Translations under genes and position numbers: made by a program
Shown here: in pieces, positions 2-28,960 of the stretch
How positions within the stretch are numbered: the first letter of the stretch is position 1
Layout of the letters: each line of letters begins with the position of its first letter
The notes under the pieces: model-generated
The model's input: only the letters and a program-made list of their open reading frames with translations
The model's database searches: none
Told to the model about the DNA's origin: nothing
NCBI GenBank assembly: GCA_043753405.1
Contig: JAYUWT010000334.1
Span: forward strand, 1 to 30,592
Source: Saprospiraceae bacterium
GTDB lineage: Bacteria > Bacteroidota > Bacteroidia > Chitinophagales > Saprospiraceae
Length of the DNA stretch: 30,592 bases
Direction: 5' to 3'

Positions 2-193
2 AACTTTTTATATCTTAATTGTATGGAGAAAAAATTTGTTGTAGATAGTTTCAACCATTTGGACAATTATAAAAATTTCAGGACTTTCTCAGCTTCTCCT
101 GAAAAAATTGCTATCAAAAGAAACAAATTAATAACTAATTCCAAAACAGAAAATTATAAATTGAAAACAATTTATAAAAAAGAAATTCTTTAA
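2..193 (+). CDS. probable 3' end of an upstream CDS (partial, unknown product)
   Basis: Frame is open from the window edge to TAA at 191-193 (NFLYLNCMEKKFVVDSFNHL...YKKEIL). No recognisable motif; the sequence is AT-rich, so a chance ORF is possible. Confidence 0.4.
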   Translation, partial: NFLYLNCMEKKFVVDSFNHLDNYKNFRTFSASPEKIAIKRNKLITNSKTENYKLKTIYKKEIL

Positions 194-212
194 TAAGTAA
201 ATTTAAATCTAA

Positions 213-563
213 ATGATAAAAACCTCAATTTTCTTTCTAGTATTCCTCTTTCTTCACATCTCTTCCTTCTCCCAAACCCAGGCGGAAATGAACCTGGAAG
301 CACATGAAAACTATAAAAAAGCAGATGCAGAATTAAATAAAGTTTATAAGGAATTGATGAAATTGCTTGATAAAAACGATGTAGAATTATTAAAGAAAGC
401 CCAAAACAATTGGATCAGATATCGCGATTCTCATTGTACGTTCGAATCTCAGCCATATGAGGGAGGAAGTATTCAGTCTTTGATCCAGAATGCATGTCTT
501 GAAGCCGTTACAAAAACCAGGATCGATGAGTTGAAAGTAAGCATTTCAGATCGGGATATGTGA
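213..563 (+). CDS. LprI/DUF1311 lysozyme-inhibitor-like exported protein
   Basis: Signal peptide, then AQTQAEMN-like SQTQAEMN...ADAELNKVYK...LKKAQNNWIRYRDSHC...CL pattern typical of DUF1311. Confidence 0.85.
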   Translation: MIKTSIFFLVFLFLHISSFSQTQAEMNLEAHENYKKADAELNKVYKELMKLLDKNDVELLKKAQNNWIRYRDSHCTFESQPYEGGSIQSLIQNACLEAVTKTRIDELKVSISDRDM

Positions 564-712
564 TCTCATCCCTCATAGGCTTTAATAAAAACTGGTAAAT
601 GATTAATATTCTTAATGGATTTTTTACAAAAAATTATAATTTATATTGAATTCAACAGTAATGCAGGCATATGGGAAAGTTTTGGCAATGGGATCGATCC
701 AAAGACATAATT

Positions 713-1195
713 ATGGAAAAAGCTTTAACGGATAAAAACTATTTACTCGAGAAATACCCGGGCAAGGGTGGCTGGACGTATGTGATAATTCCTGAAGTCG
801 AGCAAGATAAAAAAGCTCCATTTGGATGGGTAAAAGTGAAAGGAACAATAGACAACTTTGAGATAAAAAATTATAAATTAATGCCTATGGGAAACGGTAG
901 ATTATTCCTGCCGGTAAAAGCGGAGATCAGAAAAAAAATCAAAAAAGAAAAAGGAGATTGGATAAAGGTCGTTTTATATGAGGATCATGATGAAATGGAA
1001 ATCACTGAAGAACTCATTCTATGCCTGAAGGAAAGCGATACTTACCAACTTTTCATGGCCAGCTCAGAGGGTGAAAAGAAAGCTTTTGTGGACTGGATCT
1101 ATGAGGCGAAAACTGAAAAAACAAAGGTGGACCGCATCACGAGGACTATTTATAAACTGCAGATGGGATTAAAATTTGCCGATAAAATTAATTGA
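713..1195 (+). CDS. DUF1905 + YdeI/OmpD-associated domain protein
   Basis: GKGGWTYV, GWVKVKGTID, LMPMGNGRLFLPVKAEIRKKI (DUF1905) and C-terminal WIYEAKTEKTKVDRI. Start moved to ATG 713 rather than 671. Confidence 0.85.
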   Translation: MEKALTDKNYLLEKYPGKGGWTYVIIPEVEQDKKAPFGWVKVKGTIDNFEIKNYKLMPMGNGRLFLPVKAEIRKKIKKEKGDWIKVVLYEDHDEMEITEELILCLKESDTYQLFMASSEGEKKAFVDWIYEAKTEKTKVDRITRTIYKLQMGLKFADKIN

Positions 1196-1212
1196 TCAAA
1201 GTTTGGAAGGTT

Positions 1213-1220
1213 TATATTTG
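1213..1220 (+). promoter_or_regulatory. Bacteroidota sigma-ABfr -7 element (TATATTTG)
   Basis: Exact TAnnTTTG match upstream of ATG 1286, with TTG at 1192-1194 as a possible -33 element. Confidence 0.55.
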
Positions 1221-1285
1221 TTAGCATTATATATCTGGTCAACATTAACTTCTTTTTTATTCTCCAATCCAAAAATTATAAAAGA

Positions 1286-2167
1286 ATGATACATCAAAAT
1301 AAACTATGGATCTTGTTACTCTTTAGTATGATGATTTCGTGCAAGAAATCTGAAACTTCTCAAAATGTTACGAACGATCCATCAATTACGATAGACAACA
1401 ATGGCGTCAATATTGAATATGAGGACAGCGGACTGGGCGATACTACCCTCCTCCTTGTTCATGGATGGGGTATCAACAAGGAATATTGGGTAGACCAGGT
1501 CAAATATTTTTCTGATGAATACAGGGTCGTCACTGTTGACCTGCCTGGTTTCGGGCAGTCAGGAAAAAACAGAAAAAACTGGTCAGTAGAAGAATATGGA
1601 AAAGACCTCACCAAGGTTATTAATAAACTTGATCTTGAAAATGTGATCATTGTAGGTCATTCCATGAGTGGGGCTATTGTGCTCGAGACCGCTTTAAAAA
1701 ACCCTGAAAAAATAATCGGTGTCGTGAGTATTGACAATTTTAAAAATACAGGAGTGCCTGTAACTGCCGAATCAAAAGCCGAAAATGAAAAGATATTTGC
1801 ATCGATCCGGGCCAGATTTAAGGCTTCGATAGCTGGGTATGCCAATCAGGCTTTATTTTCTAAAGAAACCGATACGCTTATCAAACAAAGGGTGGTCAAC
1901 GATATGATCAGCTCTGATTCTATCATAGCCGTGGACTGTATGGAGGAGGGTGAAAAATATCCACTGGATGACAAGCTAAGATCTTTGGATAAAACACTCT
2001 ACCTCATAAACAGTACGTATTATCCAACAGATACTGTGGCTTTTACCAGAAATAAAATTGATTTTAAATTGTTTCAACAAAATGGTGTAGGCCACTATGG
2101 CATGATCGAAAAACCGGATGACTTCAATTTGCTTTTAAATAAAGTGATCCGGGATATAAAACAATAG
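1286..2167 (+). CDS. alpha/beta hydrolase, lipoprotein
   Basis: Lipobox MISC, oxyanion motif LVHGWG, nucleophile elbow GHSMSG, C-terminal His motif GVGHYGM. Confidence 0.9.
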   Translation: MIHQNKLWILLLFSMMISCKKSETSQNVTNDPSITIDNNGVNIEYEDSGLGDTTLLLVHGWGINKEYWVDQVKYFSDEYRVVTVDLPGFGQSGKNRKNWSVEEYGKDLTKVINKLDLENVIIVGHSMSGAIVLETALKNPEKIIGVVSIDNFKNTGVPVTAESKAENEKIFASIRARFKASIAGYANQALFSKETDTLIKQRVVNDMISSDSIIAVDCMEEGEKYPLDDKLRSLDKTLYLINSTYYPTDTVAFTRNKIDFKLFQQNGVGHYGMIEKPDDFNLLLNKVIRDIKQ

Positions 2168-2403
2168 TTTAGCGGATTTTGGGATATTGGCAGGATATAT
2201 TCTCGTCCTCTGGTTTTTGGCTTCGTTTACTTTGAAGGAATCTGAATGAAATGATCCATCGAATTACGAACACCGAAAGTTGATCAGCGAACAGTTGCTC
2301 AGAATATACTGTTGTTTAAAATTCGTTCAACTCCTTATTTGCATTTATTTAAATACAGGAATTCTTTTAGGAAAAGTGGCATTATAGTTAAAATGAAAAA
2401 ATT

Positions 2404-2850
2404 ATGGATCCAAAGAAAATACTTACCTCAGCGATCGTTGGAACTTCAGCCATGTCCTTGTTCAGTTATATTGTTTCAAAATTGGAGGACAAAGATTTCC
2501 GCGAACCTGTAGTACTTGCAAAGCTCCTAAAAAAACTCCCACTGGAAATGGACAAACATGAAAGGTTAATAGCTGGGTGGATCGGCCATTATGGTGTAGG
2601 TGTTATGTTTACCACGCTGTATGACCAATTGTGGGGTCGAAAAATAATTAAACCCGGCATTGGATCCGGTTTGTTGTTTGGGGCCCTGGGAGGGCTAACG
2701 GGAGTTATCGTATGGAAGATCACTTTCTTGTTACATCCACGCCCACCCTCAAAAGACCTTAAAGCTTATTTTAGTCATTTACTACTCGCACATCTGGTGT
2801 TTGGGGCGTTTTCAGCTGTGGGGTATAATTTGGTGGATGGGAAGGAGTAG
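2404..2850 (+). CDS. hypothetical 4-TM membrane protein (DUF2938/DUF1440-like)
   Basis: Four hydrophobic segments; GTSAMSLFSY, GWIGHYGVG, AHLVFG motifs. Confidence 0.75.
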   Translation: MDPKKILTSAIVGTSAMSLFSYIVSKLEDKDFREPVVLAKLLKKLPLEMDKHERLIAGWIGHYGVGVMFTTLYDQLWGRKIIKPGIGSGLLFGALGGLTGVIVWKITFLLHPRPPSKDLKAYFSHLLLAHLVFGAFSAVGYNLVDGKE

Positions 2851-2962
2851 TGATATAAAATCAATCTCTAAGAATAGGTTGAACCTAGTATTATGGGAAT
2901 ATTCTTCACACGGGCACGAGTTAAAAACTCGCGCCAGCGTTGGAATGAGGAGTAAAGAACAC

Positions 2963-2993
2963 AAAAAAAGCCGATCAAAATTGACCGGCTTTT
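2963..2993. terminator. intrinsic (bidirectional) terminator downstream of tRNA-Asn
   Basis: AAAAAAAGCCGATCAA-AA-TTGACCGGCTTTT hairpin with A/T tracts on both sides. Confidence 0.75.
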
Positions 2994-2994
2994 G

Positions 2995-3068
2995 CTCCCC
3001 CTGCAGGACTTGAACCTGCGACCCTCTGATTAACAGTCAGATGCTCTAACCAGCTGAGCTAAGGAGGA
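2995..3068 (-). tRNA. tRNA-Asn(GTT)
   Basis: Reverse complement folds as a full cloverleaf: TCCTCCT/AGGGGGA acceptor, anticodon loop CTGTTAA, T-loop TTCAAGT. CCA is not encoded. Confidence 0.97.
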
Positions 3069-3112
3069 ATGTTATTTTAATCAGAAACCTAGTTCCTTCT
3101 TAAAAAGCTCGG

Positions 3113-3120
3113 CAAAAGTA
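3113..3120 (-). promoter_or_regulatory. -7 element (TACTTTTG) for tRNA-Asn
   Basis: Exact TAnnTTTG on the minus strand about 45 nt upstream of the tRNA. Confidence 0.6.
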
Positions 3121-3164
3121 AGTTTTATTATTTTAATTTTACAATCTTTGCGAAAATATTTTTA

Positions 3165-4079
3165 ATGAAGTTAGTAACTGTTGGAACAGTAGCATTTGAT
3201 GATATCGAAACACCTCGCGGAAGAGCAGAAATGGTCATAGGAGGTGCAGCAACATATATAAGTAGGTCAGCATCTTTTTTTATTGAGAGTCAGGGTATTG
3301 TATCTGTAATTGGAGGTGACTTTCCTGAAAAGGAATTGGATGAAATGAAGTCCCTGGGAATTGATATTGATGGAATCCAGATAAAGAAAGATGAAAAATC
3401 GTTTTTCTGGGCAGGAAGATATCACGACAATATGAACAAAAGGGACACCCTGATCACTGATCTGAATGTCCTGGCTAACTTTGAACCTAAACTTCCGGAG
3501 TCATACAGGTCAGCTGAATACCTAATGCTTGGGAACCTGACACCTGATATTCAGATGGATGTTCTTAAGCAGATGCATTCACGTCCCAAATTGGTTGTCC
3601 TTGATACAATGAATTTCTGGATGGATGTAGCTTTTGACGGTTTGGTTTCGGTTTTAAAAAAGATCGATGTCCTTACGATCAACGATGAAGAAGCCCGCCA
3701 ATTAAGTGGTGAGTACTCTTTGGTCAATGCTGCAGCTGTGATACACAATATGGGCCCAAAATACCTAATTATTAAAAAAGGTGAACATGGAGCACTTCTA
3801 TTTCACGAAGGTTTGGTATTCTCATTCCCGGCATTACCAATTGCAGAAGTAATGGACCCAACAGGTGCAGGCGATACCTTCGCCGGAGGATTCATTGGAT
3901 ATTTGGCTAAAACCGAGGATTTGTCTTTCAATAATATGAAAAAGGCTATAGTTTACGCTTCTGTCATGGCCTCCTACTGTGTTGAGGATTTTTCCTTGAC
4001 TAAACTTAAGGAATTAACACAGCTGGATATTTCAAACAGGGTGGATGAATTCAGGTCACTTACGCAGTTTGCTATTTAA
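3165..4079 (+). CDS. PfkB/ribokinase-family carbohydrate or nucleoside kinase
   Basis: GGAATY N-terminal motif, INDEEA, DPTGAGDTFAGGF PfkB signature. Confidence 0.93.
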   Translation: MKLVTVGTVAFDDIETPRGRAEMVIGGAATYISRSASFFIESQGIVSVIGGDFPEKELDEMKSLGIDIDGIQIKKDEKSFFWAGRYHDNMNKRDTLITDLNVLANFEPKLPESYRSAEYLMLGNLTPDIQMDVLKQMHSRPKLVVLDTMNFWMDVAFDGLVSVLKKIDVLTINDEEARQLSGEYSLVNAAAVIHNMGPKYLIIKKGEHGALLFHEGLVFSFPALPIAEVMDPTGAGDTFAGGFIGYLAKTEDLSFNNMKKAIVYASVMASYCVEDFSLTKLKELTQLDISNRVDEFRSLTQFAI

Positions 4080-23011: not shown

Positions 23012-24361
23012 ATGTCAGTAAACATTTTAGATCTTTTCAACAATCAGGTAGAAGGAACATTGGCTCCATTAGCTGCAGGATTTTTAGGAGAGAGCGAATC
23101 TTCAACAAGAAACGTTTTAGAAACTATATCACCTACATTGTTAGGAGGTGTAGTTCAAAAAGGTTCTACAGAATTAGGTGCTTCCAGTGTCTTAAACATG
23201 TTAAAACAAGACAATTATGACACATTTGTCTTAAATGAACTTAGCGGCCTTACTGCAGATGATGGAAGTAAGATGAATAACATTATGAATATGGGGCTCC
23301 CTATTGTCAGGTCATTGTTGGGAGATAAAGTAGAAGATATTATACAATGGATCGCCGCTAAACATGAAGTGAAAGAAAATTCAGTTTCTTCCTTAATGAG
23401 TCTCGCAGCACCTTTTCTAATGGGTATATTAGGCAGAGTTGCAAAAGCAGACAATCTTAATTCAGAAGGGCTGGTGTCTTTATTAAATGCTCAAAGCCCT
23501 TACATTAGGTCATTGTTGCCTGCCGGATTAGCTTCTATAACCAATTACACAGCTTTAAACAATCCACCGCCATTTACTACGCCCGATGCTCCGGTATATG
23601 CTCCCATACCTGATACAGTAAATGTTAATACTTCAAGACCGGCATCAGGAGGTGGACTTGGAAATTTTTTACCGTGGTTACTGCTCATTATAGGAATTGG
23701 ACTTTTATGGTACTTTATGAGGGGTTGCAATGATCCTGATGTGGATGACGCCAGAGATAATACTGAGGTCATAATGGACTCAACTAAGGAAGATATAAAA
23801 GATGCAGTGGATACTATTAAAGACGGAGCATCTGAAGTTGCTGCAGCCTTTAAAGGTAAGGTGGATGATTTAGGCAACTGGGTTTCAGATCTGGGTAAAG
23901 ATTATACAGTCATACTGCCCAATAAAAAAGAGCTCAAGGTCAACGAAAGTTCTATAGAGCGTAATCTTGTTGAATTTATTAATTCGGGTACAACAGATGA
24001 AGAAATGCTTAAGAATAAATGGTTCTCTTTTGACAGGTTATATTTCCGCTCAGAAAAATCAGAGTTAGTCAATTCTTCTAAAAAGCAATTGGACAACATT
24101 GCTGATATCCTAAAAGCCTATCCTAAGGTGAACATTAAAATGGGTGGATATACAGATTCTGATGGAGAAGAATCAATGAATCAAAAACTTTCACAGGAAC
24201 GTGCAGAAACTGCTAAAAATGAATTGCAGAAAAGAGGTGTGGGTGGCAACAGAATTGAAGCTGAAGGTTATGGAGAGCAGTTCCCAAGATGTCCTGATAA
24301 TGATACAAGGGAATGTAAATCACAGAATAGGAGAATTGATATAAGGATTACTAAAATGTAA
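23012..24361 (+). CDS. DUF937 + OmpA-like peptidoglycan-binding domain membrane protein
   Basis: N-terminal helical DUF937-like region, TM FLPWLLLIIGIGLLWYFM, C-terminal OmpA-C (GGYTDSDG..NQKLSQERA..EGYGEQ..NRRIDIRI). Confidence 0.92.
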   Translation: MSVNILDLFNNQVEGTLAPLAAGFLGESESSTRNVLETISPTLLGGVVQKGSTELGASSVLNMLKQDNYDTFVLNELSGLTADDGSKMNNIMNMGLPIVRSLLGDKVEDIIQWIAAKHEVKENSVSSLMSLAAPFLMGILGRVAKADNLNSEGLVSLLNAQSPYIRSLLPAGLASITNYTALNNPPPFTTPDAPVYAPIPDTVNVNTSRPASGGGLGNFLPWLLLIIGIGLLWYFMRGCNDPDVDDARDNTEVIMDSTKEDIKDAVDTIKDGASEVAAAFKGKVDDLGNWVSDLGKDYTVILPNKKELKVNESSIERNLVEFINSGTTDEEMLKNKWFSFDRLYFRSEKSELVNSSKKQLDNIADILKAYPKVNIKMGGYTDSDGEESMNQKLSQERAETAKNELQKRGVGGNRIEAEGYGEQFPRCPDNDTRECKSQNRRIDIRITKM

Positions 24362-24384
24362 TAATCTAATTATCCTCAGGTTAT

Positions 24385-24418
24385 AAAAAGGGTCATCTCA
24401 CCAGGATGATCCTTTTTT
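24385..24418. terminator. bidirectional intrinsic terminator between convergent genes
   Basis: AAAAAGGGTCATC-TCACCAG-GATGATCCTTTTT. Confidence 0.8.
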
Positions 24419-24459
24419 CATAATTCCTTAGATATCTTAATGACATTTTTTGAAATTAA

Positions 24460-25584
24460 TCAAATAACCAAAAACGGTATTTTTATTTCCTTATTCACTC
24501 TTTTGTCCACCATCATCTCTTTGAAAAGATCAATGTAAGACAAACGGTTTTCAAGCATGGTTCCATTCTCAAAAGATATTGATGAGAATTTTTTTACCGG
24601 GGTCTCGTTTTTCATTTTAATGCGCTTAAAAAACTCAGGATAGAATATAAGTGGGAAGTGTTCAAAATCTTTAGAGCTATTTGCTTTTAAGAAAGCACGT
24701 TCTATTGAGGCACAGTTTATTTTCTTCTGTTCCGGGCTAAGGGATGATTTTTCATTTGCCGCATCATTCCAGACCATAAAATGAGCTGAAATATCTTTAA
24801 TATTCTTTAATATGCAATGCAGGTTTTCATCCAGAGGATAGAGGATCTTAACATTGACACCAACGATAAGATCAGCCGATTTGACTTTCAAAACAAGTTC
24901 AGAAAGTGCGGTCCGGTTATAACCCATATTTTCTGTGTTTATCATATTGTTTTCTGCTTCCCCCAAATTTATAATTACACCTTTCAGGCCTTTTTCAGAG
25001 AGAATGTCGAAAGCAATATCCTGGCTTTTAGCATCTACTACCAGCCAGGGTTCACAATTGGCCGGGCACCCACTCAGGAATCTTCCCAGCATATAAAGCA
25101 TGGATTTATTCTGTTCCCATTTAATATAAACCTTGTGGGTATTTTCGTTGAGTTTGAATTTGCCGGTGGTGAAAAGATCTATCGTAGTATTAAGTCTGCT
25201 TTTACTTCCGCAGGATGAAAAATCTATGTAGGTCACACCCGGATTGAATATCTGGATATCATCATTAAGTTGTTCAAATTCATTTATGATATATCGTTCA
25301 AAAGATTCCCCAAAGAAGAGCGGAATGAAAGGATTCCAAAAGAACTTACCGTTATGCTTGAGCACCTTGTCAAAATAAAACGGACTTGCTATTCCATTGT
25401 ATTTTTTATCAAGGTTTTTAAAATATTTGATCGCGGTATTAAGGCTTTTTGTTTCACCTAATCCTACTATAAAGATTCTTGTAGAAAGGGCTGACATTAA
25501 GTATTGTTTTTCGAATCTGCTGGAACTTAATATTTTGGAAGCATGTTTTTTATTGACAATGCTGATTTTTTCGTTATTCTCCAT
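24460..25584 (-). CDS. hypothetical protein, probable degenerate radical-SAM-fold homologue
   Basis: 374-aa ORF. Segments resemble a Bacteroidota radical SAM family (KHNGKFFWNPFIP..FERYIINEF; KGLKGVIINL; FPLIFYPEFFKR) but there is no CxxxCxxC. Confidence 0.7.
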   Translation of the reverse strand: MENNEKISIVNKKHASKILSSSRFEKQYLMSALSTRIFIVGLGETKSLNTAIKYFKNLDKKYNGIASPFYFDKVLKHNGKFFWNPFIPLFFGESFERYIINEFEQLNDDIQIFNPGVTYIDFSSCGSKSRLNTTIDLFTTGKFKLNENTHKVYIKWEQNKSMLYMLGRFLSGCPANCEPWLVVDAKSQDIAFDILSEKGLKGVIINLGEAENNMINTENMGYNRTALSELVLKVKSADLIVGVNVKILYPLDENLHCILKNIKDISAHFMVWNDAANEKSSLSPEQKKINCASIERAFLKANSSKDFEHFPLIFYPEFFKRIKMKNETPVKKFSSISFENGTMLENRLSYIDLFKEMMVDKRVNKEIKIPFLVI

Positions 25585-25744
25585 GCAGACAAAAACATTA
25601 ATTTATTTGAGACAATTTGTATAAATTGCGTCTATAAATGGTTGTGGAAATAGATTAATTCGATGTAAATAATAGTTATAAAATAACAACATTTCCCATA
25701 CATTTCTTTGAAAGGTAATCTTAAAATTTTGTTAAAATACATAT

Positions 25745-27166
25745 ATGCACTTTGAGAATTTGTTAACGGGCCTGATACTAAACATGTTAGTTTTTACTGC
25801 TCTTAGTTTGCCCGGACAATCCATCACTTTGTCCAATGAAATTAACATGGTTTCTGACAATAATTATGATTTGATCGGATATTTTAACAATCGGATCACC
25901 TTACTTGAGGATAACGGTCGTAATATAACGCTGCATGAATTTGATGACAATCTGAAGAGTCTGAATGCCCCTATGATCACTAATGATAATAAAAAAAGCA
26001 GATTATTTGGCTATGTGCCTCAAGACACGGTATTGACACTTTATTACAAGTACTTTGAAGAAGGACAGCATGTCATTTCCCTTGTCAATTATAATTCAGG
26101 ACTTCAAGTGACAGATGGTCTCATCCTGCAGCAATATGATAAAAACCAGCATCGAGTCCTGCCCATCAATGTTTCAGAAGACAAATCCTACCATCTGATC
26201 ATGATAGATGAAGGTTCAGGTCGCACTACAAGGTATATGATGTACGATGCACTCACCAATAAGATCATCTGGAACTACCATGACCCGGGCATTGATGTGA
26301 ATCTGTATGAAGAGGACAGGATCGCCAAGATAGTTTCGAACAAGGGTGTTTATTTCGCTTTATATGTCAATGGACATAACCGTTTTAAAAATAATTATAC
26401 TCTGGTGCGCATAGACCCCGGCGGCTATAAAAGGATGGAAGTACCGTTAAATCAGCTTCCATTATCAGACATTTATCTGGATTATGATGACGATCTTGAC
26501 AGGCTGTCACTGTTTGGGATTTATATGGACGAGGGGAATGCCGCGCAGGAAGGTTTGCTTCGTGTCGACGTGAACCCGGGATTAACAGCTTACGGTGAAA
26601 TGAAGAAAATACCTTTCGGAAGACAAACTATCATTGATTATTTTGGACAGAATCAGAGACAAAAGATGGGTATAGTAGATCTTGAATTAAACGAAGTACA
26701 GAAAAGAAAAGATGGCGGTAATCTGGTCATATGTGAACAAAAAAAAGAAGTCAACAGGGTCAACAATACGGGTAGAAGTGCATTCCTTCCTGTCAGTACC
26801 AGTACCGACTATTATATAGAAGATATAGTCCTGACCAGTCTTGATAAGGAAGGTAATCTGGAATGGCAGAAAGTGTTACAAAAAAAACAATACTCTTATG
26901 ATGATGACGCCTCCTATTCTTCATATTATATCCATGCCAATCCATCTCACCTGCGTTTGTTATACAATGATGAGATCAAATCAGAAAACACCATCAGTGA
27001 ATACATAGTTAATCCTTTGGGTAATGTAGACCGGCGAGTAATGTTCAATACCGCAGGTTCAGACCTACATGTTCAGATCAGGAACGCAAGGCAGATCAGT
27101 GCCAATTCTACCATCCTGCCTAGTATCCGTAAGGGAAAATTGAGGTTGTTGAAAGTAACTTACTAA
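25745..27166 (+). CDS. conserved exported hypothetical protein of Bacteroidota (beta-rich)
   Basis: Signal-like N-terminus; RKDGGNLVICE, YYIEDIVLTSLD..EWQKVLQKKQYSYDDDASYSSY motifs. Confidence 0.8.
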   Translation: MHFENLLTGLILNMLVFTALSLPGQSITLSNEINMVSDNNYDLIGYFNNRITLLEDNGRNITLHEFDDNLKSLNAPMITNDNKKSRLFGYVPQDTVLTLYYKYFEEGQHVISLVNYNSGLQVTDGLILQQYDKNQHRVLPINVSEDKSYHLIMIDEGSGRTTRYMMYDALTNKIIWNYHDPGIDVNLYEEDRIAKIVSNKGVYFALYVNGHNRFKNNYTLVRIDPGGYKRMEVPLNQLPLSDIYLDYDDDLDRLSLFGIYMDEGNAAQEGLLRVDVNPGLTAYGEMKKIPFGRQTIIDYFGQNQRQKMGIVDLELNEVQKRKDGGNLVICEQKKEVNRVNNTGRSAFLPVSTSTDYYIEDIVLTSLDKEGNLEWQKVLQKKQYSYDDDASYSSYYIHANPSHLRLLYNDEIKSENTISEYIVNPLGNVDRRVMFNTAGSDLHVQIRNARQISANSTILPSIRKGKLRLLKVTY

Positions 27167-27204
27167 AAAAAAGGAAGAAAAATATTTTAATTCCGCAAAA
27201 GTAA

Positions 27205-27212
27205 TATCTTTG
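27205..27212 (+). promoter_or_regulatory. -7 element (TATCTTTG) driving the tRNA-Val locus
   Basis: Exact consensus TATCTTTGC, 31 nt upstream of the first tRNA-like copy. Confidence 0.7.
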
Positions 27213-27243
27213 CCTCACTTTTGAAGAAAAGTAATTTTATTTA

Positions 27244-27305
27244 GGGAGCATAGCTCAGCTGGTTCAGTATCCCGATTTAATATCGGGAGGGTCCGCGGTT
27301 CGAAC
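27244..27305 (+). pseudogene. tRNA-Val pseudo-copy with the anticodon arm replaced by a palindrome
   Basis: 27244-27267 and 27287-27305 are identical to 27348-27371 and 27391-27409 of tRNA-Val; the intervening 19 nt differ; no 3' T-stem or acceptor strand. Confidence 0.85.
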
Positions 27306-27347
27306 TCCAACAACTTCGGGAAAGACTGAAGAAAAAAGAAATACATT

Positions 27348-27422
27348 GGGAGCATAGCTCAGCTGGTTCAGAGCATCTGCCTTACAAGCAGAGGGTCCGC
27401 GGTTCGAACCCGTGTGCTCCCA
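27348..27422 (+). tRNA. tRNA-Val(TAC)
   Basis: GGGAGCA/TGCTCCC acceptor, GCTC/GAGC D-stem, TCTGC-CTTACAA-GCAGA anticodon arm, CGCGG-TTCGAAC-CCGTG T-arm. Confidence 0.98.
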
Positions 27423-27433
27423 CAAACATTGAC

Positions 27434-27463
27434 AAGGGTCTTGAGAAATCGGGACCCTTTTTT
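27434..27463 (+). terminator. intrinsic terminator of tRNA-Val
   Basis: AAGGGTCTTGA-GAAA-TCGGGACCCTT followed by TTTT. Confidence 0.8.
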
Positions 27464-27471
27464 ATTTATAG

Positions 27472-27517: not shown

Positions 27518-27534
27518 TGTACAAATTTTGTACA
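27518..27534. promoter_or_regulatory. operator-like palindrome TGTACAAA-T-TTTGTACA over the kinase start
   Basis: Perfect 8-bp arms; contains the TTG at 27528. Confidence 0.5.
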
Positions 27535-28547
27535 CTACTAATAAAAATAACGTTTTGGGAATAAAATTCACACAGCCTGAAAATTATACAGGATTTAACT
27601 TTGAAACGAATAAAATCAAGAGGCTTAAAAAGAAAGATTTCGTAGTAGAGGATATTAAGGTTGGAGGTGATGCGCCAAAAATATTCATTAGAGCAAAATT
27701 TTATGAACACGGCCGAAGAAGAGATCATGGGACTAAGAAAAATTATATTGCAAAAGTTGGACATAAATGGTATTGTAATGAATCTATTACTGAACATCTA
27801 TTAAATAGGCTTGGCAAGTGCGTAGGGGTCAAAATTGCAAACTCTCAACTTAAATTTATTAATGGGCAACTTTATTTTTTAAGTGAGTATTTTTTACAAG
27901 CAGATCAGCAATTAATACATGGGGCAGAGATTTATAGAGGTTTCTACAAAGATGATTCCAACTTTGTAGAGGAAATTGAAGAACAAAAGCAATCTAAAAG
28001 TTTGTTTACCTTTCAAGAGACCCAACAAGCTTTAAGTGAGATATTTGGACAAAAAAATACTACAATTTATACTAACTTTGTAAAAATGCTTTTGTTTGAT
28101 GCTTTTGTTGGTAACAATGACAGACATTTTTATAATTGGGGAGTAGTAAGGCATGTTGCAAATAAGCATGAACCTTATTTTTCACCAATATATGATACCG
28201 CTAGGGGATTATTTTGGAATAAAAGTGAAGAATCCATTAATAGTTTCTTATCAAATAAGGATTCATTAGAATCAAGAATTGAAAAATATGCAATTAAGTC
28301 AACACCTAAGCTGGGTTGTTCTAAGACGGATGTAGATAATCATTTCGATCTTGTAAAAAGCATTTATGTTTGTAGCTCTAAATATCTACAAGAAATTATA
28401 AAAAACTTTATAAGCTCACTTGATTTAAATGTTTGCTTTCAGCTTATAGATGAAGAATTTATAAGTATTCTTTCATCAAACAGAATGATATTAATAAAAA
28501 AGTTATTAAAGTTTAGGCACTTAAAACTTTTAGATATCGTTAAATAG
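27528..28547 (+). CDS. HipA-family (HipT/CtkA/Stk-like) Ser/Thr kinase, core domain only
   Basis: Gly-loop VGGDAPK(46-51), YIAK76, E89, catalytic GNND198RHFYNWG, SPIYD223. Start uncertain (TTG; the first in-frame ATG is codon 187). Confidence 0.9.
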   Translation: MYTTNKNNVLGIKFTQPENYTGFNFETNKIKRLKKKDFVVEDIKVGGDAPKIFIRAKFYEHGRRRDHGTKKNYIAKVGHKWYCNESITEHLLNRLGKCVGVKIANSQLKFINGQLYFLSEYFLQADQQLIHGAEIYRGFYKDDSNFVEEIEEQKQSKSLFTFQETQQALSEIFGQKNTTIYTNFVKMLLFDAFVGNNDRHFYNWGVVRHVANKHEPYFSPIYDTARGLFWNKSEESINSFLSNKDSLESRIEKYAIKSTPKLGCSKTDVDNHFDLVKSIYVCSSKYLQEIIKNFISSLDLNVCFQLIDEEFISILSSNRMILIKKLLKFRHLKLLDIVK

Positions 28548-28552
28548 TAACA

Positions 28553-28960
28553 ATGAAAAAAATTGTCAATAATATAAAAAAGTATTTTGCAAAGCCGGAA
28601 GGCCTTGAAGACACTTATGCACCAAAGGATGTAAATGCAAAATTTTTATTAATGTATAAAAATACTGCTGTTGGAGAACTCACATTAAATGATGCTATGT
28701 GGGAGTTTAAGTATACTCCTATGTTTAAAACACAAAAAGAAGTATTACCAATTGTAGATTTTCCTGATGTAAATAAAGTTTATAAACTAGATCATTTGTG
28801 GCCATTTTTTGTGAGCCGGATTCCTGGATTAGGTCAACCAGAAGTGCAGAATGTAATTAAGAGGGAAAAAATTGATAAAGAGAATGAATTTGAACTTTTA
28901 AAGAGGTTCGGAATAAAATCTATTGCAAATCCTTTTACTTTAGAGTTATCTATAAGTTGA
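28553..28960 (+). CDS. HipS-like / HipA N-terminal (couple_hipA) domain protein
   Basis: LMYKNTAVGELTLND..WEFKY..FPDVNKVY..LWPFFVSRIP..EFELLKRFG; 5 nt after the kinase stop; no HIRAN or HTH extension. Confidence 0.85.
   Translation: MKKIVNNIKKYFAKPEGLEDTYAPKDVNAKFLLMYKNTAVGELTLNDAMWEFKYTPMFKTQKEVLPIVDFPDVNKVYKLDHLWPFFVSRIPGLGQPEVQNVIKREKIDKENEFELLKRFGIKSIANPFTLELSIS

Follow-up and report, generated by a model that had tools for sequence, protein, structure and literature searches.

Known systems at tRNA genes

Few bacterial loci are as conserved or as highly transcribed as tRNA genes. The rtT repeats of the E. coli tyrT operon are tandem repeats that contain part of a tRNA and lie inside a tRNA transcription unit; they are located downstream, carry the tRNA 3′ end, and include neither an arm-replacing hairpin nor a nuclease gene. 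Partial tRNA copies beside an intact tRNA gene are likewise produced as the attL/attR duplications of integrases, a feature shared with the locus described here, which lies in a contig of 30,592 nucleotides from a Saprospiraceae bacterium (the whole stretch analysed, hereafter the window). Unlike att duplications, which copy the 3′ end and bracket an island, the copy in the window (hereafter the ghost) is a 5′ copy located 104 nt upstream of its tRNA, with one arm exchanged, and the flanking ORFs showed no integrase domain. Elsewhere in the same genome, exact 3′-end copies of tRNA-Ala(GGC) (46 nt; C446:1272-1317) and tRNA-Met(CAT) (43 nt; C129:383-425, 1.65 kb from its tRNA) are typical of integrase att sites.

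The small nuclease gene that accompanies many relatives of the ghost has counterparts of its own. UPF0213/YhbQ-like mini GIY-YIG proteins (1ywl and 1zg2) share its size and domain and are the only PDB matches with E below 0.01, each of them weak (E 0.002-0.003). We know of no link between these proteins and tRNA genes or hairpins, and the window encodes nothing of the kind. Likeness to REP elements and RAYTs (REPINs; PMC8049555) lies in a short GC-containing palindrome within non-coding DNA and in the Y1 genes of the host genome; unlike those of REPINs, the palindrome of the ghost is single-copy, is unpaired in the REPIN sense, and differs from the hairpins beside the Y1 genes.

The closest published system found is SegB of phage T4, a free-standing homing endonuclease of the GIY-YIG type whose gene lies within the T4 tRNA gene cluster (PMC2330249). 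As with SegB, the relatives of the ghost bear a GIY-YIG gene among tRNA genes that is inherited together with flanking tRNA sequence, and by analogy SegB offers a plausible model for the spread of these cassettes. In contrast to SegB, the ORFs of the cassettes are only 80-100 aa in length, comprise the catalytic domain alone and are chromosomal, and the window has no nuclease gene. The cassettes also possess hairpin-substituted tRNA copies and leader arrays, which the abstract of PMC2330249 does not mention for SegB. A full-text literature search found no account of bacterial chromosomes in which mini GIY-YIG genes accompany hairpin-substituted tRNA copies, and the cassette family, found in at least five families of Bacteroidota, appears to be undescribed in the searchable literature.

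A partial tRNA-Val copy ahead of the intact gene

The host genome is a MAG of 658 contigs, 3.36 Mb, 37.7% GC and 78% completeness, and the protein encoded upstream of the locus is 74% identical to one in Candidatus Brachybacter algidus (Saprospiraceae, Bacteroidota). A single tRNA is called at the locus by ARAGORN and Rfam, the intact tRNA-Val(TAC), which scores 69 bits with the latter. As the first-pass annotation had described from the sequence, a partial copy of this gene precedes it at an offset of 104 nt with a perfect hairpin in its middle, and both BLAST and pattern searches bear this out (Table 1). Positions 1-24 of tRNA-Val recur in the ghost with 24/24 identity (24 nt; E 7e-7 by BLAST against its own genome), as do positions 44-62 (19 nt identical; E 7e-4), each at the same offset, and these two blocks are the only matches to tRNA-Val outside the gene in that genome, where no other hairpin-bearing ghosts were found. 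Between the blocks lies TCCCGAT-TTAAT-ATCGGGA, a perfect hairpin (stem 7 bp, loop 5 nt), matched once by the pattern search against 0.06 expected even with two mismatches allowed.

Table 1. Layout of the tRNA-Val locus, in window coordinates
Feature	Position	Strand	Remarks
Bacteroidota-type -7 promoter box TATCTTTG	27205..27212	+	sole such box upstream of ghost and tRNA
Ghost 5′ block: acceptor 5′ strand, D-stem 5′ strand, D-loop	27244..27267	+	24/24 identity to tRNA-Val 1-24
Remnant of D-stem 3′ strand, TA where other members have AGCA; D stem lost	27268..27269	+	
Hairpin replacing the anticodon arm; member of the TCCCGAY...RTCGGGA arm family	27270..27288	+	
Variable region, T-stem 5′ strand and T-loop, as in the real tRNA	27289..27305	+	identity block 27287-27305
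A-rich spacer, acting as second leader	27306..27347	+	no significant similarity to the tRNA 3′ end or trailer; no box or terminator
Intact tRNA-Val(TAC)	27348..27423	+	ARAGORN, Rfam
Intrinsic terminator, 11-bp stem with G-U pairs, then T run	27434..27465	+	stem 27434-27459

The 3′ strands of the D stem, T stem and acceptor are absent from the ghost, again as first described, and beyond position 62 its similarity to the 3′ end of the real tRNA is no better than that of shuffled sequences (p about 0.55). A model in which a 7-nt deletion would relate the 3′ part of the ghost to the tRNA 3′ end and terminator was dropped, its alignment being no better than shuffles. The hairpin arm measures 19 nt against the 17 nt of a normal anticodon arm, and the D-stem 3′ segment reads GTA here against GAGCA in most other members of the arm family, a shortening by 2 nt. 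The swap does leave the net length unchanged, as the first-pass annotation had noted, but this equality is a coincidence, the sum of the two differences (+2 and -2). The D stem is destroyed, unlike that of most members of the arm family. ARAGORN makes no call on the ghost, the Rfam tRNA model does not match it even at E≤10, and no other Rfam family reaches its gathering score here; the ghost itself cannot become a tRNA.

The TATCTTTG box and the start of the leader are kept in congeners. Neither a second -7 box nor a terminator lies between the ghost and tRNA-Val, and the unit has a single terminator, of the ordinary type that follows tRNA-Val in congeners. From this layout of box and terminator, the ghost is almost certainly part of the 5′ leader of pre-tRNA-Val and co-transcribed with it, in agreement with the original proposal. 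A further proposal, that the TCGGGA in the terminator is linked to the hairpin, found no evidence: this hexamer is one of seven on the + strand of the window, and the idea that the terminator is a diverged copy of the hairpin was rejected since it is of the congener type. The occurrence of three TCGGGA within 170 nt looks enriched, in a count that was made post hoc.

The ORFs neighbouring the locus encode a protein of unknown function and a HipA-like pair. The latter lies directly after the terminator (27528-28960) and consists of a 339-aa HipA_C kinase ORF and, after it, an ORF of 135 aa whose product has the HipA N-terminal (Couple_hipA) domain. In congeners the sequence downstream of tRNA-Val differs, which marks this as a variable site. 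The tRNA-Asn locus also present in the window is plain.

Recurrence of the hairpin arm among Bacteroidota

A search of Bacteroidota for tRNA 5′ halves followed by the hairpin, suggested by the first-pass annotation, yielded further hybrids. A pattern of the D-loop end followed by a CCGAY...RTCGG hairpin located the specific arm A-TCCCGAY-loop-RTCGGGA-GGGTC in at least 16 of 401 Saprospiraceae genomes, within copies of tRNA-Val that are partial or variant, and every specific-arm locus examined adjoins a real tRNA-Val(TAC). The units are often arranged in tandem in leaders as arrays of 2-5, with periods of 75-113 nt. A scan of metagenomes for CCCGAY preceded by a Brachybacter-type 5′ half yielded 18 contigs, in which the promoter leads to 1-5 ghost units and, where the contig reached that far, the real tRNA. 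A stricter motif of 27 bases was matched in 4 of 250 further Bacteroidota genomes, representing four other families and, in one case, another class; all of these matches lie beside tRNA-Val(TAC), and reversed-pattern controls gave none. Altogether the same 7-bp stem sequence is present at more than 40 loci in at least five families, and in addition at a tRNA-Pro gene. On the strength of these matches, it is close to certain that the ghost is a member of a hairpin-arm family, and the view that the swap is not the outcome of random decay, also advanced at the outset, is upheld by the recurrence of the same arm at tRNA-Val in many genomes and at tRNA-Pro.

Within this family, the loops of the arm range from 3 to 24 nt, and their sequence varies as freely as do the number of units and the break point. 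Hairpins of the CCGA type also occupy other sites of spare tRNA copies, namely the D loop in the congener G001 and the T loop or T arm in L042 and L068. The individual hairpins of CCGAT type lie in the T loop of L042 (about 1083-1700, minus strand), after the T loop in L068 (560-660 and 960-1060), and in the D loop of L009 (1316-1500, from G001). Judged by its varied positions in spare tRNA copies, the hairpin behaves like an insertable module. At two further loci (L059/L065, 2724-2871, and L071, 5304-5459), the acceptor strand of the ghost reads GGGAGCA against GGGAGTT in the adjacent real tRNA-Val; ghost and neighbouring tRNA therefore differ in origin, and the differing acceptor strands suggest that these ghosts are chimeric or horizontally acquired.

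The presence of the ghost varies at the syntenic site itself. Behind the same upstream gene in three congeners (G002, G006 and G007), the promoter is followed directly by the tRNA and there is no ghost. The contig L057, continued by L055, is syntenic with window positions 23844-27377 at 71% nucleotide identity and bears at least four units of 109 nt; L055 is Brachybacter-like, and its at least four units are homogeneous and unaccompanied by a GIY-YIG ORF. The ghost comes and goes at this site, with none in G002, G006 and G007, one in the window and at least four in L057/L055. A synteny search by the upstream gene among genome contigs gave four loci and no further ghosts. G001 carries two tandem ghosts before tRNA-Val, behind an upstream flank that has no match to the window, and each features CCCGAC-CAAAGC-GTCGGG in place of the anticodon arm together with a second, CCGAT-type hairpin in its D loop.

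Stem covariation and predicted folding

In an alignment of 32 distinct arms (A1), all 224 of 224 stem cells hold standard pairs; four inner pairs are fixed by the search patterns and are thus uninformative, leaving three free. Compensatory double changes occur at 3/3 of the free pairs (U-A to C-G, C-G to U-A and U-A to C-G) and in 17 cells, a number reached in none of 500 shuffles. One U-G pair is present in alignment A1 and a second in L063.

The proposal that the 5′ strand of the ghost could pair with the 3′ strand of the real tRNA finds agreement in thermodynamic folding, where the real 3′ acceptor strand is predicted to pair with the ghost 5′ strand at p about 0.99 in the window, and the same mispairing is predicted in 11 of 17 loci folded. 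The predicted MFE is -65.9 kcal/mol, compared to -56.3 kcal/mol for a fold constrained to the native structure, in calculations that ignore co-transcriptional order and tRNA tertiary structure. As evidence of function the folding was discounted, since a duplicated unpaired strand yields such mispairing trivially.

Mini GIY-YIG genes and complete cassettes in relatives

Many hairpin-bearing loci carry an ORF of 80-100 aa in which PF01541, the GIY-YIG domain, scores 48-61 bits (cut-off 22.6). With an HMM built from these ORFs, the gene is found to adjoin 19 of the 27 hairpin loci with enough flanking sequence, three ORF starts at contig ends being counted, and none of 18 tRNA-Val loci devoid of a ghost (L002-L020; same HMM). 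The loci were chosen by their hairpin and not by the ORF, and they are related, so no formal p-value is attached to this contrast. The other eight of the 27, L055 among them, are ghost-only loci.

The complete layout is plainest in L063, whose T arm is equal to that of the window and whose ghost likewise ends after GGTTCGAAC. Here the ghost is followed by a 23-nt spacer, the intact tRNA and its terminator, the GIY-YIG ORF, a further tRNA copy and a second terminator. The stop codon of the ORF lies inside the D arm of the next unit, and this downstream tRNA copy is truncated at its 5′ end, carries the same long hairpin as the ghost and retains its whole 3′ half. That 3′ half and the corresponding half of the intact tRNA thereby form a direct repeat of 36 identical nt on either side of the terminator, ORF and hairpin.

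Cassettes are also found at other tRNA genes within the same genus. In G001, a tRNA-Pro cassette combines the same hairpin type with a GIY-YIG ORF (L075, about 155-880, minus strand): the ghost of tRNA-Pro(TGG) has TCCCGAC-TGAAAC-GTCGGGG as its anticodon arm, and the locus further comprises several short acceptor-only fragments, the intact tRNA, a terminator, the GIY-YIG ORF and a decayed downstream copy. In G006 (L076, about 1200-3200), at least two upstream ghost units and an intact tRNA-Asn are joined by four tandem repeats with a period of 431 nt, each composed of a GIY-YIG ORF and a variant tRNA-Asn with a different palindrome, CATGGAATTCCATG; these variant copies are miscalled as tRNA-Trp by ARAGORN. 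The hairpin therefore goes with the cassette and not with tRNA-Val, since the tRNA-Pro locus of G001 shares the hairpin type whereas the tRNA-Asn locus of G006 differs.

Compared with these cassettes, the locus in the window has a partial tRNA copy in the transcription unit of an intact tRNA and an arm replaced by the hairpin type of the cassette; an adjacent GIY-YIG ORF of 80-100 aa and a downstream hairpin-bearing tRNA copy are lacking. No mini GIY-YIG gene was detected by tblastn in the window or in the assembled genome, which is 78% complete, where PF01541 occurs only in frames of 610 aa and 462 aa situated elsewhere than at this locus. No second hairpin-bearing tRNA copy follows the terminator, and the metagenome scan revealed no ORF-carrying allele of this exact locus. 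With two parts of the cassette present and the nuclease ORF absent, the locus is consequently classed as an orphan remnant and not as a full member.

Origin of the ghost

The reading that we favour, at a probability of about 0.6, is that the ghost is an orphan remnant of a tRNA-associated mini GIY-YIG cassette, which implies a nuclease gene formerly present at this locus. The complete cassette comprises a promoter, at least one 5′ ghost unit, the intact tRNA and its terminator, the GIY-YIG ORF of 80-100 aa and a second tRNA copy with the same hairpin. The nuclease gene would most likely have been lost when the intact tRNA recombined with the downstream variant through their identical 3′ halves; a single crossover, or a slip during replication, at a repeat of the L063 type would leave a ghost, a tRNA and a terminator, as in the window, a deletion product that may be likened to a solo LTR left behind. 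The ghost would now be transcribed from the TATCTTTG promoter in the leader of pre-tRNA-Val and presumably freed by RNase P cleavage at 27348. As for the hairpin, our preferred guess is that it represents a structure needed by the cassette, either for recognition by the nuclease or to bar the spare copies from serving as substrates or tRNAs. The recurrence of the arm, its association with GIY-YIG genes, the layout of L063, the cassettes of G001 and G006, the patchy presence at the syntenic site and the acceptor mismatches all speak for an orphan remnant, and the destroyed D stem fits the decay of the ghost. Against it stand the lack of a mini GIY-YIG gene in the 78%-complete assembly and the eight of 27 hairpin loci that are equally without an ORF; the L055 array suggests that such arrays may be maintained or amplified in the absence of the nuclease. 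The covariation of the stem and the flanks of the ghost, 100% identical to the real tRNA, further argue against a dead relic, and such clean sequence would not be expected in a purely dead relic unless explained by gene conversion or a recent origin. Possible, if unlikely, is the stronger proposition that the hairpin is a working part of a new mobile element targeting tRNA genes, in which a GIY-YIG enzyme reduced to its catalytic domain would read structure and not sequence, and that leader ghosts, the orphan included, would still act in cis on the folding or processing of pre-tRNA-Val.

A somewhat different role, which we consider unlikely, would make the ghost units a functional RNA module of the tRNA-Val leader, for example a pro-sequence whose unpaired 5′ acceptor strand vies for the 3′ strand of the real tRNA and thereby adjusts its maturation, or a decoy that binds some factor specific to tRNAs, with the GIY-YIG genes as hitch-hikers. 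Such a module would account for a stem that is 100% paired in 32 arms with compensatory changes at all three free positions, for the arrays of 2-5 near-identical units in leaders, some of them ORF-less, and for the predicted pairing of acceptor strands (p about 0.99 here; 11/17 loci). It sits poorly with the absence of the ghost from the syntenic locus in three congeners, with the free variation of unit number, break point and loop sequence, and with a D stem that is often weakened and here destroyed; moreover, folding that leaves out co-transcription and tertiary structure would predict pairing for any duplicate unpaired strand, and template switching that corrects palindromes in DNA can mimic covariation. 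Ordinary tandem duplication of tRNA-Val followed by decay and gene conversion, with no mobile element and a hairpin that arose by chance or by quasi-palindrome correction, is a rather improbable alternative. Relatives commonly have tRNA-Val genes in tandem at a spacing of about 100 nt, gene conversion would give flanks identical to the real tRNA, and no nuclease gene is present here; yet the hairpin is strongly associated with the GIY-YIG ORF, and the recurrence of the same 7-bp stem at more than 40 loci, in at least five families and at tRNA-Pro, makes an independent chance origin not credible.

An artefact is very improbable. The assembly is a fragmented MAG of 658 contigs at 78% completeness and the metagenome scan turned up no independent assembly with exactly this sequence, both of which would be compatible with a chimera, but the hairpin and spacer make up about 60 nt of unique sequence embedded in a contig of 30.6 kb, and the same architecture recurs in dozens of independent assemblies, including single-contig genomes. 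Least tenable is the mechanism put forward in the first-pass annotation, an HUH-type editing of a DNA stem-loop by REP/RAYT elements that would have exchanged the anticodon arm for a REP-like palindrome. The swap does follow the boundaries of structural elements, and the genome encodes five Y1_Tnp proteins (L083-L087; contigs C63, C116, C590, C261 and C584) that are IS200/IS605 or RAYT-like. The palindrome, however, occurs once in the 3.36-Mb assembly by regex, and a census of perfect hairpins with stems of at least 8 bp across the genome disclosed no family with the stem of the ghost, the commonest GC-containing 8-bp stems (11 and 6 copies) being unrelated; a REP family was rejected on these grounds, and a RAYT link because the hairpins that flank the Y1_Tnp genes are likewise unrelated. 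The companion of the hairpin in relatives, for which a co-occurring RAYT had been proposed as a check, is the mini GIY-YIG gene and not Y1. Some of the Y1_Tnp genes are flanked by hairpins of their own (AGCATTGG..CCAATGCT and AAGCGTAGG..CCTACGCTT), and the stem CCCGGTGC, present in 11 hairpins genome-wide, may represent a small REP-like family.

Significance

The orphan remnant in the window is, on its own, probably an inert or mildly costly relic. Scars of this kind are open to misreading by annotators, tRNA finders, predictors of integrase att sites and small-RNA studies. The cassettes of its relatives form a family of small elements that rebuild tRNA genes, placing ghosts in the leader, keeping the tRNA intact and adding a mini nuclease gene and a second hairpin-bearing copy, and the ghost would exemplify what such an element leaves behind. 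If the hairpin is indeed the recognition structure, these elements would represent a structure-guided means by which selfish DNA may target tRNA genes without destroying them.
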